Source of the DNA: Escherichia coli
GTDB lineage: Bacteria > Pseudomonadota > Gammaproteobacteria > Enterobacterales > Enterobacteriaceae
DNA: 64,000 nucleotides
Direction: 5' to 3' (one strand)
Assembly: GCF_044324785.1 (NCBI RefSeq)
Contig: NZ_CP172127.1
Numbering within the stretch: position 1 is the first letter of the stretch; the number at the start of each line of letters is the position of its first letter. The position numbers were made by a program. This document shows positions 12,001 through 18,000 of this stretch, piece after piece.

Positions 12001-15000
12001 TGTCGCTGCCGGATGAACAGGCTCGTAATGCTTTCATGCAGCAGGCGCAGCAGCAGCGTATTCAGTTCGCTACGCAGGCCGGGAGGTACGAGATAGGGCA
12101 AATAAATGCCTACGAAGAAGGCCAGTTTCAGGCTACGCTGCTGAACAATGGTAAAAATGCCGCAGCATTGTATGGCGACAACGCCGCATACGTATTGGCT
12201 AATAAGCAAACTTTCCAGCAAATTGAGGATTACGGTATTGCGCATGGCTGGAGCGACGAGCAAATCCAGGCCAAGAAAATCGAGTTTAAAGAAGCAACAG
12301 CAAAAGCAACTGCTCAAAATGCTATTGGAGCAAACTATCTTCAGGTAAGACAGCAAAATGGCGAGTTAAGCGATACTGCTGCTGGATCTCGCCGTGCTGT
12401 AGCAGATAGTGGCTCTTCCGATCGTACCCGCGGTATACGCAACAATAACCCCGGCAATCTTGAATACAGCAAAACTAATCCGTGGGTTGGGCAGACTGGT
12501 GATGATGGTCGCTTTGCCAAATTCGAAACCCCTGAACACGGTATTCGCGCGCTTGGTCGCAATTTGCTGTCGTATCAGCGTCAGGGTTATGACACCATCA
12601 GCGAAATAATTAATCGCTGGGCACCGGCCAGTGATGATAATAAAACTGATGCTTATATACGGGCAGTATGTGCTCAGCTCGGTGTAACTCCTGACCAGCC
12701 GCTTGACGCATCAAATCCTGACACACTGAAATCTCTGTGCAAAGCAATTATTCATCATGAGCAAGGCAGTCAGCCGTACAGTGATCAGCAATTGGCCGCT
12801 GGCGTTAGTGCCGCACTGGGGCTTTCTCAGCTACCGACAAAAAATAAACGTTATACCGGTGTAGCCTGGTTCGATGCTTTAAGTGAATCAGATCAGGCCA
12901 GCGTGTTGCGACAGACGGATGCATTAGCCAGACAGCAGCAGGCTGAATATAGAACGATGCTCGAAAGCCGGGTTCGCGATGCAACGGCTGCGTATATGCG
13001 TGGCGTTGAATTTCCTAACCCGCCTGGTGAGGGTGAGTTCATTGCTGCTTATGGTGTCAGAGAAGGAAACCTGCGATATACCGAGTTCAGAAATTTGCAG
13101 ATCGCCGGACAGTATATAGGCTCTTTCCGCAACATGCCGACAAGCAGCATTACCGCATATGTTGAGCAATTACGCCCGGATACTGGTGAGACAGGGGAGG
13201 GGTATGCGTCTCGTGCGGAGTTATTCGACCGGGTATCGGCGGCAGCCACGAAGGTAATAACCCAGAGGCAGAATAATCCGTTTAGTGCAGCGGTGGAAAT
13301 CGGAGCCTATAAGCCGATCACCAGCAACAACCCTGACGATATCACTGCCGAGGTGGCTAACCGTTTCTCGTCGCAGGAAAGCTTACGCGCGTTGGGAATT
13401 AATGCCCCACTCCTCAACAGTGAAGAGGCGGCTGCGCTGGCACAGCAGGTGCGCGGCACTCAGAACGTTGACCAGACAATTAAACTGTTGCAGAGCATGG
13501 GGGAGAAGCTGCCTGCGCCAGCAATACGGCAGGTGGCATCTGTAATTGCTCCGAACAGTGCGGCAACAGCCTATTCTGCGCTGCTGCTGGGCACGCCGGA
13601 TAACCAGTACGACAACACCAGGCCGACGATCCCATATAGTCAGTTCATCGGGTATAAGCCGACGATGAACAAGTACGACGTTGCAAAGGTTATTCTTTCC
13701 GGTGACCAACTACTGAATCCGACGAAGGCTATGAAGAATGCGGGCATAACTCCGGTACAGTTGCCGAGCGAAGATAAAATGAAGCGCGCTTTCGACGAAC
13801 AGGTTGGTAATGCATTTGCCCGTAACCCAGAGACGCGCCAGATCAGTTATAGCCTTTTCAAAGCCGCTTACGCAGGAATCGCTTATCAGTCTGGTAATGC
13901 GTCTATGACGAGCACAGATGCGGTTAACTCCGATGTGGCGGAGAAAGCTGCGCAGTACGCAACAGGCGGTGTATACAAGAGATTTAATGGTGGTGATGTT
14001 GTAATGCCTTTCGGCATGGATGAATCCACTTTCAAAGATCGCTATACCACATCAGCGAAACAAGCACTGAAAGATGCCGGACTTAACGTAAATGCAGTGT
14101 CAAACTTCACACCAGTTAATATCGGCAATAACCGGTATCGGCTGGTAAATGGTAGCGGACGCTGGGCAACAGATCCCAGAACCAATGAAGCTATTGTCGT
14201 GAGGGTTGAATAATGTCTGATGTTTTTTCTTTGGCTCCAGAAGGTCAGGCATGGATTGACGACAAAACAGTTGCCAACCCAGCAAGGCCAGAAGACTACG
14301 ATCCGACTCCCTTCCAGGGTTCAGGTACTGCACTTTTGAGCGGCGTGGCGGAGGGGGCTCTCGGTCTCGCGCAGTCTGCCGTCGGATTCAGCAAGCGCCT
14401 GATTAGCGATCCGGCATTTACCGCAGACGTGGCACCGACTGTTAATATTTTTCGGGAGATGTTCCCTGATGCTGACAAAACACTGAATGATACATACGAC
14501 ACGATCGGAAAACAGTTACAGGATGCCCGCAGCTATGTGAAGCCTGATGCAGGCAGTCAGGGAATGGCGGCTGAGGTATTAAATGAGCTTGGTAAATTTG
14601 TTCCTGCAATCGGAACAACTATGTTTGGCGGTCCCCTCATCGGCGCTGCTACAGCTTTCAGTTCTACGTATGAGCAGTCCTATCAGGATTTTAAAGGGAA
14701 GGGAGTAGACGAGGCTACGGCGCGTAACCTGGCAACGCAGCAAAGCCTTTTCAATGCTGTGGGTATGGCCTTACCCGCTGCCGTCGGCACCACACTGGCA
14801 ACGCGCATTGCCTCAGGTGTGGCAATCAACACCGGATTCGGTGGACTGAACCGTTACTCTGTCGGCGCAACACTGGAGGAAAAAGGCTACACGGAGATGG
14901 CAAAACAGTACCGGGTATTTGACGGTCAGGCGATGTTAGTCGATGCCGTTTTAGGCGGGGTCTTTGGTGGCGTTCATCACCTGACTACCCATAATAACCA

Positions 15001-18000
15001 TGATGGTACAGAGTCGAACATTTCTGCAGAAGAAATAAAATCAACTTTTGGTGAACATTATCAGCAATCTCCTGATGGTAACATTGAGTCAATGGTTCGT
15101 GATTTATCTGATTCAGGAGTAATAGAACTTATTAATGAACCAGCAATAAAAAATAGTGATGGAGAAATACTTCTGAATAAAGGTCATGTGACAGTAGCTT
15201 CTGGAAAAGAACCAATAATAAGAATAAATATTAATGGATTAAAAGATCATGAAGAACTGTTAGAAACCCTTCATCACGAGGCGCTTCATCTTGAGCAGCG
15301 CCATTACCCTGACTGGAAGGCCAGAAAGCTAGCTAATGCTGTACTTAAATCTGCAAACAAGCATTCTGACTATCCTGAATTTGCATATGGGATGTCACAA
15401 TATTATGAATATAAGAAAAGGGGTGAGTACCCTGAAACATATCCTGAGTGGTTGTACGCTGAAGAAGTTGCCGCACATGCAGTAAATCCATCTCTAAAGA
15501 CAAGCGTTTCATCATGGGAAAAAATTATTTCAGGTTTTAAAGCCTATATATTCAGATACAGTGGTATTCAGGTTGGAACCGTTACACCTGAGCAGTTACG
15601 GTTACTCGTAAGTATGCGTCTTCGCAATATGAAACTGGAAGCCGCAGTCGAAAAAGTTTTTGGTATCCGGGCAAGGGAAAGAATAAAACCAAGCGATATT
15701 GATGCAGCCCACATTTTGAATGAGGGGCTTCATTACGATATTGAATCGTCACCAGTGCTTCACACCAGCAATGAGAGCATCAACAGCCATGTTGACGCCA
15801 TGGATGAAGCATACAGGCAACTTAATGATGGTCAGCCTGTAAATGTTGGGGGGATGGCGCGAGGGCTTGATGGTCCATTGCGATCAGATATATCTGATAC
15901 TTACCAAGAGCAATACCATGAAATACAAAAGGTTTTTGAAGAAAATGGTGTCAGATATGAAACATCATCAGAGCCAATTAGTGAATCGCCTGTCCCTCGT
16001 GCTGAAAGTGCTTTCTCATCGGCTGGTGAACACAGAGGGGACGTCAGCGTTGATCCAGATACAGGGCAGGTTCTCTCATCCAACAGCTATGACCTTATGG
16101 CTGCCAGAGACATGGCTGTTGCCAATCCTGAGCTGACTATAGCTCACCCGGAAACCGGAAACCCGACAAAACTTTCTGATCTCCTGGCTGAGTTGGATGA
16201 ACAGATTAAGACAGTCCAGAACGAATCGAAGGTTTATTCTGTAGCGGCAGCGTGCTTCTTGAGGAACCCATAATGAAACAGGCATGTGTTGAAGCTATTG
16301 CGCAGACACTTGGTCGCCAGCCAAAGGCTGATGAGCTGAAAAATATCGAAGATCGTATCAAAGAAGCAGTGCAACATGTGCACAGAAAGAATGCAAAAGA
16401 AGGCAAAAGTGGTATTCCTGATGCTCAAACATACATGGATGCTGCAGAACTGGTACGCCAGCGTGTGGTTCATGATGTGTACAAGAAAAGACAGCGTGTT
16501 GCCCAGAATGCGATCGCCATCAGTAAAATTACTGACACTCTCGATGCTAACATCCCGCCTGATCAGCAGACACCTGTTAATTTGCAGCAGTTTATTTTTG
16601 CTGGCCGACGATCGAGAGACAAAGCTGATATCTCCGTTGCTTCTGCTGAAGAGCTTGCAATTGGGGCATATCAGGACTGGTCCCGTCAGCTCAGTGCTGA
16701 ACTTCTAAAAGCAGGTGATGACGTCCGCAAATTCTTCGAGCAGAGCAGGGCGCTTGGAGAGCAGCGGTTTCGGAGTGTATTCGACAGGCAGGCGGCAAAG
16801 TCTGCACAACTCCAGATCCTGAAAGAAATATATGGCGAAGATACCGGGAATCCCCTGGCGAAGAAAATTGCACAGATTTGGAAGGATGTAACAGGCCGTG
16901 TTCGTCATGAGATGAACGACAATGGCTTTGACATAGGCCTGCGAGAAGACTGGCATACGCCATATGTGGATGATGCTGACCTTATTCGCAATGCCGGGCG
17001 CGAAGAATGGCTGGCATCGTTACCAGTGGCAGAGCAAGCTACAGCACGTCTTTCAGGTCGCCAGCCACCGATTGAGTTTGCCCGCCAGAAATGGGTTGAT
17101 GACGCTTACAACACGCAGGATCGCAGCAATTACGTTAATCCTGACGGCAGCATTATGAATGACGTCGAGTACCGTCAGGCACTGGAAGCGATCTTTGAAA
17201 CGAAGGCCACTGATGGGGCAAACAAAATTGAGCCTGGTACATTTATGGGAGCCGGAGGAATAAAGAGCCGTGGTTCTCAGCACAGGGTGATGGCGTTCAA
17301 GGATGCGCAGTCACACTTCGCCTATATGGAACGATACACTCAGCAGCCGCTGGTGGGGGTGATGATGTCGCACCTGCAATCATCATCCAGGGATTTGGGC
17401 GTCGTTAAAGCCTTTGGTCCGGACGCCGAAAGAAACTTTTCCCTGGTACTGGATCGCATCTATAAGCGCGCAGTAACAGGCGGGAAACGCAAAAAAGAAA
17501 TGGAGGATGAGGCCAAATTAGTTGCCCGTATGTTCAACTCAATGGCTGGCCTAAATGGTGTCGCTTCATCGAGTGTGTTCTCTTCAGCAGTTGGTGGTCT
17601 GCGTAACCTGATGACCAGCGCCATGCTTGGCACCAGCGTACTGACAGCAACCAGCGACCAGGCAATTATGCGGGCAAATGCGCAGGCGCTGGGCTTTACC
17701 CGTGGTGGAATGCGGCTTTCCGTTAACACTATCAAAAACCTGTTTAGTGGAGATGCCAAAAAGGCGAATGCTGAACTCGGTCTGCTGGTGGATTCACATG
17801 CTGCTGTGGTTTCGAAAATGGGCGGGTTTGACTTGTCTCGCGGCATAACTGGCTGGTTCGCAGAGAAGACACTGAAGTGGTCCGGGCTGATCGCTATGGA
17901 CCGCGCAAACAAAGCGTCGTTTGGTCTCCTGATGTACAAAAACATTGGCGAGCTGACCAGAAAATTTAAGACGCTGGACGATATGAAAGGAACCGATAAA

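Follow-up and report, generated by a model that had tools for sequence, protein, structure and literature searches.

We analysed a 64,000-nt stretch of an Escherichia coli genome (contig NZ_CP172127.1, assembly GCF_044324785.1), hereafter called the window, with a focus on three consecutive genes, A, B and C, whose products are homologous to gp15, gp16 and gp17 of phage epsilon15. Gene B has an AT-rich centre that encodes an HExxH motif, and this centre very likely represents a foreign zincin-like domain of ~200 residues that has taken the place of a variable linker. The three genes and the relevant parts of gene B are as follows, where aa stands for amino acids and GC for the fraction of G+C.

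11682..14213, plus strand: gene A, 843 aa, epsilon15 gp15 homologue with a lytic-transglycosylase-type region (PHROG 992/1044/7182; epsilon15 annotation)
14213..16273, plus strand: gene B, 686 aa, epsilon15 gp16 homologue, middle gene of the operon (PHROG 1145, function unknown)
16273..19029, plus strand: gene C, 918 aa from the RefSeq ATG, epsilon15 gp17 homologue, virion structural protein (PHROG 684)
14213..15001, plus strand: conserved N-terminal region of gene B, residues 1-263, 83% identical to epsilon15 gp16, GC 0.527
14983..15681, plus strand: exchanged AT-rich cassette, approximately residues 258-490, showing no likeness to the epsilon15 gp16 centre at either the DNA or the protein level
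15074..15646, plus strand: zincin-like metallopeptidase-type domain, residues 288-478, with predicted elements from an AlphaFold2 model
15275..15289, plus strand: HEALH (H355, E356, H359), putatively two zinc ligands and the catalytic base, invariant in 36 of 36 aligned sequences
15461..15466, plus strand: E417-E418, an invariant Glu-Glu pair, E418 being the candidate third zinc ligand (alignment, model and the 'NEF' of the virion RNA polymerase (vRNAP) of phage N4)
15682..16273, plus strand: conserved C-terminal region of gene B, residues ~490-686, 74% identical to epsilon15 gp16, GC 0.469

Stop and start codons overlap at both the A-B and the B-C junctions. The product of gene B is named 'hypothetical protein' in RefSeq (WP_021543042.1), and in the annotation of epsilon15, gp15 is a lytic transglycosylase-type "head protein", gp16 is hypothetical and gp17 is a virion structural protein. 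The position of gene B between a gp15-like transglycosylase gene and a gp17-like gene matches that of epsilon15 gp16, and genes of the gp15-gp16-gp17 type constitute the internal-virion/ejection-protein operon of the epsilon15 podophage group (PMC8954989). Protein B matched PHROG 1145 in two stretches with an E value of 1.9e-136. When aligned with epsilon15 gp16 (NP_848224.1), it was 83% identical over residues 1-277 and 74% identical over residues 480-686, with no alignment between them. A hydropathy scan of the N-terminal part of B revealed four or five Gly/Ala-rich, moderately hydrophobic segments (residues 39-59, 126-150, 173-205 and 235-259).

An earlier note on this DNA had described an AT-rich interval at 14990-15560 in gene B that ends at an HEALH motif and is followed by a Tyr/Glu-rich region. 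The interval is AT-rich as described, with a GC of 0.363 and a GC at third codon positions (GC3) of 0.232; direct reading placed the motif at nt 15275-15289 (residues 355-359), and the Tyr/Glu-rich run is present after it. However, the motif does not terminate the segment but sits in its middle, and the segment reaches ~15681. Along gene B, GC was 0.527 for residues 1-263, 0.383 for residues 264-489 (nt 15002-15679) and 0.469 for residues 490-686, and the corresponding GC3 values were 0.506, 0.257 and 0.411. Since GC3 was roughly halved in the centre, nucleotide composition was altered there, not amino-acid content alone. When GC was computed over 300-nt intervals, it dropped from 0.53-0.56 at 14500-14999 to 0.34 at 15000-15299 and then recovered slowly. 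DNA similarity between gene B and the epsilon15 gp16 gene, as examined by blastn, ended at position 14982 and restarted at 15682 (nt 770 and 1470 of gene B), indicating that the exchanged piece spans ~14983-15681 and extends ~120 nt beyond the right limit proposed earlier. Within the 19-kb island that carries the operon (1544-20707), no 678-nt stretch besides the centre of gene B was so low in GC. Note that a region encoding the ETT2 secretion system beside the island is equally AT-rich, so that the dip in gene B stands out against the gene and its operon, not against the whole window.

An alignment of the B homologues identified the segment as a variable cassette, because three types of centre were found between invariant flanks (length classes were taken from the best 120 of 420 homologues of the gp16 family). 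One type is a short Pro/Ala/Glu linker in proteins of 505-527 aa, mostly 521 aa; another is the epsilon15-type helical insert (~110 residues in epsilon15) in proteins of 620-636 aa; and the third is the HExxH cassette, found in the 686-aa product of window gene B and in a 690-aa protein, P0003. The 521- and 634-aa forms come from epsilon15-like prophages that are complete and have genes for capsid, tailspike and lysis along with gp10-like and T7_gp14-like ones. Of 5426 complete E. coli genomes, 36 contained the cassette DNA, with an identity of at least 99% in every case. The idea of a horizontally exchanged domain, which had been raised from the compositional change, is thus supported by the gp16-like flanks around an unrelated centre, by the three alternative centres, by the rarity of the cassette and by the even GC of the epsilon15 gp16 gene, which is 0.53-0.59 throughout.

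The P0003 protein is encoded on an 11-kb metagenomic contig (L003) that has a T7_gp14-like gene upstream of A-B-C. Its cassette is 62-63% identical to that of the window and keeps HHEALHLEQR. Part by part, P0003 and window B were 80% (N-terminal), 62% (cassette) and 69% (C-terminal) identical, and the non-synonymous divergence (dN) was 0.14, 0.28 and 0.22, respectively, with synonymous divergence (dS) saturated. This divergence of the P0003 cassette indicates that the cassette has long been present in the gp16-type family and has been under constraint throughout. On the same contig, A-B-C is followed by DUF4760 and Bro-N genes on the opposite strand (L003:8663-10197), a layout unlike that of epsilon15.

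We also compared window gene B codon by codon with four other island copies, which are not phylogenetically independent. The numbers of synonymous/non-synonymous codon differences were as follows.

Island copy L130: gene B 16/1, cassette 6/0
Island copy L131: gene B 17/2, cassette 5/2
Island copy L002: gene B 15/0, cassette 4/0
Island copy L129: gene B 1/0, cassette 0/0

Gene B, the cassette included, is therefore under purifying selection rather than in decay. As a separate observation, gene A was much more polymorphic among the island copies than B or C (dS 0.06-0.21 and dN/dS ~0.2-0.3 for A, dS ~0.03 for B), which suggests a mosaic or fast-evolving segment inside gene A. In the island copy of NZ_CP135671.1 (hits H50 and H174), an IS4-like element, ISVsa5, is inserted in gene C.

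Relatives of the cassette itself were sought in several ways. A word-indexed search of 5.8 billion proteins gave no match, and an exhaustive phmmer search against 1.84 billion representatives returned one identical 74-aa fragment and nothing else; full-length cassette proteins are probably hidden in the representative set behind relatives that lack the cassette. Sequence searches of the PDB with B and with the family profile described below gave chance-level matches only, and tblastn against plasmids gave a single weak match of the polyvalent type. In tblastn searches of 50,697 phage genomes, the cassette produced weak matches (E ~3e-3), all within its last third and all in giant "DarB-like antirestriction" or "PLxRFG" proteins of ~60-kb podophages. 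The phages were those of Ralstonia, Klebsiella, Serratia and Ochrobactrum, with Burkholderia phages also among the matches, and the P0003 cassette as a query gave the same outcome. An HExxH form of gp16 was not found by tblastn in any of these deposited genomes. When the giant polyvalent proteins were read upstream of the match, a whole module common to them and the cassette was seen, in which the motifs occur in the same order.

Klebsiella phage ZX1: LLDSGRLEL ... DGKIHLALYNL ... LMHELFHAG ... EELGAYAVE ... GLQLGKVTPGQLRALA
Window gene B: LSDSGVIEL ... EPIIRININGL ... LHHEALHLE ... EEVAAHAVN ... GIQVGTVTPEQLRLLV

In two scans of viral contigs, the full module was found to be encoded at 107 loci, which reduce to 51 at 85% identity; almost all lie in 55-65-kb genomes. 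Two of them, given here by locus and position, illustrate its placement.

L004:1100-1710: polyvalent-protein module of phage GP4
L005:1100-1700: polyvalent-protein module of phage ZX1

In the giant proteins the module is flanked by LPD3 or GNAT regions and by LPD39 or PLxRFG regions. When 29 polyvalent-protein modules, and no B sequences, were used to build a profile, it matched residues 288-478 of B with a score of 38.4 bits and an E value of 2.5e-8, calculated for one million database sequences. In an alignment of 36 sequences, H355, E356, H359, E417, E418, A421, Q453, G455 and P459 were invariant, and the aligned family members were otherwise ~20% identical to B. The earlier note had regarded HExxH as the minimal zinc-peptidase signature and as weak evidence on its own; the motif is kept in the diverged P0003 copy (63% identical) as well as in 34 of 34 distant polyvalent-protein homologues, in which the downstream Glu-Glu pair is conserved alongside it. 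The module consensus, HExxH...EExGAYAxE...GxQxGxVTPxQLRALA over ~200 residues, describes the 107 loci, which are listed among L004-L118.

A scan of 100,044 species-representative genomes yielded seven loci only, all of the polyvalent type and from alpha- and beta-proteobacteria, and no donor of the AT-rich version of the cassette was found among these genomes. The distant homologues found all come from higher-GC phages, unlike the AT-rich cassette. In the AFDB, a protein of 832 aa from Pectobacterium zantedeschiae (A0A9X8JH42) matched the structure of the cassette with 30% identity and an E value of 3e-8, and may represent a further carrier or a form intermediate between the polyvalent modules and the cassette of E. 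coli. In the Bcep22-like phage JC1, mass spectrometry identified the DarB-like protein as virion-associated (PMC9144972).

The predicted fold agrees with a zincin-like assignment. AlphaFold2 on the whole of B as a single sequence was unusable, with a predicted local distance difference test score (pLDDT) of 39, whereas the domain modelled with the 36-sequence alignment reached a pLDDT of 85.4 and a predicted template modelling score (pTM) of 0.81. The predicted elements are a helix at 291-300, strands at 304-307, 324-327 and 335-339, the HEALH helix at 346-364, two insert helices that hold the Tyr/Glu-rich run, a helix at 412-423 with E417/E418, and two C-terminal helices. The model thus puts HEALH on a helix after a small beta-sheet and the Glu-Glu pair on a helix further on, as in zincins, in line with what the earlier note had suggested as a structural check. 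In the metallopeptidase of polyvalent proteins, as defined in PMC5512222, a three-stranded sheet follows an N-terminal helix; the HExxH helix comes next, and after a variable insert there is a helix that bears the ligand Glu. The element order predicted for the cassette is in agreement with this layout.

The family profile was also aligned by hhalign with residues 2130-2448 of N4 vRNAP, the region from which the metallopeptidase domain was defined (PMC5512222). The alignment had a probability of 87.6%, an E value of 3.5e-6 and a score of 45.6 over 119 columns, compared with a maximum score of 25.2 over 30 shuffles; it paired HExxH with the HELVH of N4 and E418 with the Glu of N4 'NEF'. Fold searches of AFDB50 returned B itself, the Pectobacterium protein and proteins named 'large polyvalent protein associated domain' (E 7.6e-4, TM 0.62). 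Lower in the results there were weak, low-probability matches to ATP23, ImmA/IrrE, SprT-like and M56 peptidases. Foldseek of the domain model against the PDB gave nothing significant.

Several narrower assignments were tried and rejected. A metzincin does not fit, since HEALHLEQRHY has no Gly at +3, the His at +5 is not conserved (HEMFHSGVKPL in homologues) and the HExxHxxGxxH motif is absent. No likeness to the LAS, M23 or M15 folds appeared in any search, which disfavours a peptidoglycan peptidase. A DUF4157-like domain, suggested by the HExxHxxQ appearance of the motif, was not matched in Pfam, and the family does not conserve the Gln.

The operon lies in an integrated island of 19.15 kb. 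Its limits and two of its genes are as follows.

1544..1562, plus strand: attL, a 19-nt direct repeat at the 3' end of tRNA-Gly(CCC) (tRNA 1488-1561)
1687-2940: integrase gene in the island
7323-9449: gene for a DUF927 primase in the island
20689..20707, plus strand: attR, an identical 19-nt repeat that with attL bounds the 19.15-kb island

The gene order is integrase, coiled-coil protein, AlpA-like helix-turn-helix regulator, AntA/B and BRO-N antirepressors, Icd-like protein, DUF4222 protein, DUF927 primase, SSB, ProQ/FinO, a frameshifted PerC, A-B-C and a 104-aa open reading frame (ORF). The island thus follows a satellite-type plan, being att-flanked, with an integrase, a regulator and replication genes and with most virion genes lacking. 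Its left half is mosaic and common in part to 2384 E. coli genomes, some of which carry other cargo (e.g., a HEPN protein). Gene C occurs as a single copy in each of the 53 complete E. coli genomes that carry it; the island form (98.5% identity or more) is present in 36 of them and a form at ~80% identity or below, presumably in epsilon15-like prophages, in 17, so that the operon is about twice as common on the island as in presumed prophages. Co-residence of the island with an epsilon15-like prophage was considered and was not seen, as gene C occurs once per genome. The island is a satellite-like element with ejection genes, and this is the more unusual part of the finding. No description of a satellite encoding ejection proteins was found in the literature searched, although absence there is not proof.

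Other features of the island and its surroundings were recorded. Upstream of the AlpA-like and antirepressor genes there are 33-nt tandem copies (3939-3971 and 3972-4004) and 17-nt copies (3881-3897 and 3903-3919), and these repeats at 3881-4004 could be operator or iteron sites. Two tandem 21-nt repeats lie at 20045-20086, just within the attR end, in a stretch without a long ORF. The PerC-family regulator gene (~11022-11247), just upstream of A-B-C, is annotated as frameshifted in four of four related E. coli records inspected. Immediately past attR, at 20897-48000, there are genes for a family 15 glycoside hydrolase and for a toxin of the GhoT/OrtT type, together with the ETT2 type III secretion cluster, which is low in GC and includes eivF, sctC, sctV and sctN; several of the cluster genes are pseudogenes in a related record.

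Taken together, we slightly favour the explanation that B is an ejection protein with an acquired zincin-like domain that is packaged, ejected and active as a protease effector. What the analysis shows is the mosaic structure of gene B, the homology of its flanks and centre, the conservation of HExxH and the downstream Glu, the zincin-type predicted topology and the purifying selection. Under this explanation, B would be packaged in the capsid of a helper and expelled with the DNA, as presumed for its phage homologues. Zinc would be bound by H355 and H359, E418 and E356 being the candidates for the third ligand and the catalytic base, respectively, and the domain would then cut a protein at the site of DNA entry. 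The domain is probably catalytically competent. Since relatives of B in complete prophages lack the domain, it appears to be an accessory payload that is not needed for ejection itself. As such an optional payload, it would likely be a trans-acting protease effector against a protein of the recipient cell or of a rival element, such as a defence factor; taken by itself, the trans-acting role is somewhat doubtful.

Several results weigh against this explanation. Pfam gave nothing on B and the cassette, and NCBIfam and PADLOC also gave nothing; similarly, Pfam-A gave nothing on all 36 aligned modules, and no NCBIfam model covers the module. However, the metallopeptidase region of N4 vRNAP has no Pfam-A model either, showing a gap in the library rather than exclusion of B from the family. 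The two B-type sequences alone failed to reach N4 vRNAP in hhalign, so that the N4 score is carried by the polyvalent rows and the link from B to N4 is transitive, from B to the polyvalent module and from the module to N4. Furthermore, between the att repeats there are no capsid, portal, terminase, tail, gp13 or gp14 genes, and megablast found gene C only once in each of the 36 genomes with the island. Because gene C never occurs twice per genome, the island-bearing strains have no closely related resident helper, and with no resident helper detectable by megablast, the packaging of B is an assumption.

The position of the domain exactly between the two conserved halves of B would also suit a protease acting in cis, which cuts B itself, or A or C, in the capsid or after ejection and thereby converts a stored form to a channel-forming form. 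Autoproteolysis was proposed as the main role of such metallopeptidases, with the processing of phage P1 DdrB cited (Iyer et al., PMC5512222). Nevertheless, in prophage variants the same halves are connected through a simple linker or a helical insert and a protease is lacking, indicating that separation of the halves is not generally required, and B has no further payload domains to release; we therefore consider processing unlikely. A role of the domain without catalysis, as a structural or packaging module that keeps the zincin fold, e.g., for loading into the capsid, is suggested by N4 vRNAP, in which the region with the related domain is required for encapsidation and the protein is packaged unprocessed (PMC5512222). 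On the other hand, HExxH and Glu-Glu are invariant in 36 sequences that are otherwise ~20% identical to B, a pattern expected of a metal or active site and not of a scaffold, and domain-less B variants in complete prophages are presumably packaged; such a role is improbable. As for the view that there is no functional domain, but a drifting linker or decaying insert with a chance HExxH, an HExxH by itself is little evidence and the site is one at which the linker is known to vary, yet the confident fold (pLDDT 85), the significant profile match, the invariant catalytic-type residues and the nearly all synonymous polymorphism of the cassette (6/0, 5/2 and 4/0) make it hardly credible.

A different reading starts from the island. 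If it is a phage satellite, A-B-C could be altered copies of the helper's ejection proteins that enter helper-built capsids and either favour satellite transfer or spoil helper virions, with the cassette as the interfering part. The att-flanked island of 19.15 kb, with its integrase, AlpA-like regulator, antirepressors, Icd-like protein, primase and SSB and no structural genes, fits such an element, as do its mosaic backbone with other cargo in some genomes, the lack of an HExxH-form B in any deposited phage genome searched, the 36 island genomes against 17 with presumed epsilon15-like prophages, and the fact that A, B and C are all intact and under purifying selection. However, PADLOC gave no match, and the diverged cassette copy beside a T7_gp14-like gene (P0003) has a more phage-like context, indicating that the cassette is not exclusive to islands; this reading seems rather unlikely. 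An extended version, to which we likewise give little weight, is that the tRNA-Gly island is a satellite with gp15, gp16 and gp17 homologues captured from an epsilon15-like podophage, of which gp16 is armed with a protease module from polyvalent anti-defence proteins; helper-built particles would inject it, disabling recipient defence or sabotaging the helper.

Returning to the explanation we favour, that of an ejected protein with an acquired zincin-like effector domain, metallopeptidase domains in virion-delivered phage proteins (PMC5512222) and mosaicism of ejection proteins (PMC8954989) are already known. What is new is a very divergent subfamily without a Pfam-A, NCBIfam or PADLOC model, its placement in a gp16-type protein and its carriage on a satellite-like island. 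Phage-injected proteins meet the recipient cell first and are a likely, little-explored site for anti-defence functions. The linker of a core ejection-operon protein can take an enzymatic payload, and a protease-like module of ~200 residues, present at 107 phage or provirus loci, moves between giant polyvalent and small ejection proteins. Gene B offers a compact object on which the activity long proposed for such metallopeptidase domains could be tested, with one domain, four candidate catalytic residues and natural domain-less alleles. The island context raises the possibility that satellites contribute their own injected proteins; if true, a satellite would supply its own injected effector plus part of the ejection machinery.

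Finally, we compared gene B with known systems. The earlier note had likened the segment to the exchanged domains of polymorphic toxins; the abrupt change in composition and the alternative cassettes between conserved flanks bear out the likeness. However, the cassette is internal (residues ~258-490 of 686) and not C-terminal, and the next gene encodes a conserved gp17 homologue with no immunity gene downstream, so that B was rejected as a polymorphic toxin. The metallopeptidase domain of polyvalent proteins delivered by virions is the more apt parallel (PMC5512222). Podophage ejection proteins also exchange domains (Swanson, Hou, Cingolani 2022, PMC8954989); they are likewise mosaic, with mobile enzymatic modules, for example a peptidoglycan hydrolase located on T7 gp16 or on gp15-like proteins of K1E/K1-5 (PMC8954989). 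The modules there are cell-wall hydrolases, and a peptidase or protease module is unmentioned in that review. With epsilon15 gp16 and its homologues in Uetakevirus prophages (PHROG 1145), B shares both flanks, the operon position and the codon overlaps, but its centre is replaced and it lies on an island without gp13, gp14, capsid or tail genes.

The module of DarB-like/PLxRFG proteins (Ralstonia phages GP4/Gervaise, Klebsiella phage vB_KpnP_ZX1, Serratia phage Parlo and Bcep22-like phages) is homologous to the cassette over all of its ~190 residues with 18-26% identity, and its motifs LxDxG...L, HExxH, EExxAxA and GxQxGxxTPxQL are also present in the cassette. On the other hand, it resides in proteins of 3000-4500 aa in high-GC phages (~55-65 kb), whereas the cassette is AT-rich and has His for the Tyr of AYA and Asn for the last Glu of AYAxE. 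More broadly, metallopeptidase (MPTase) domains occur in polyvalent proteins of phages and plasmids, such as the C-terminal region of N4 vRNAP, P1 DdrB and ArdC (Iyer, Burroughs, Anand, de Souza, Aravind 2017, PMC5512222). The cassette is like them in its HExxH helix after a small sheet and an N-terminal helix, the Glu on a later helix and the variable helical insert between; its host protein is likewise expected to be delivered with DNA, and profiles link B to the module and the module to N4. It differs from some MPTase subfamilies in having neither the extra His/Asp nor the HExxxH variants (PMC5512222), and from the multi-enzyme giants in being the sole payload, set in the linker of a core ejection-operon protein.

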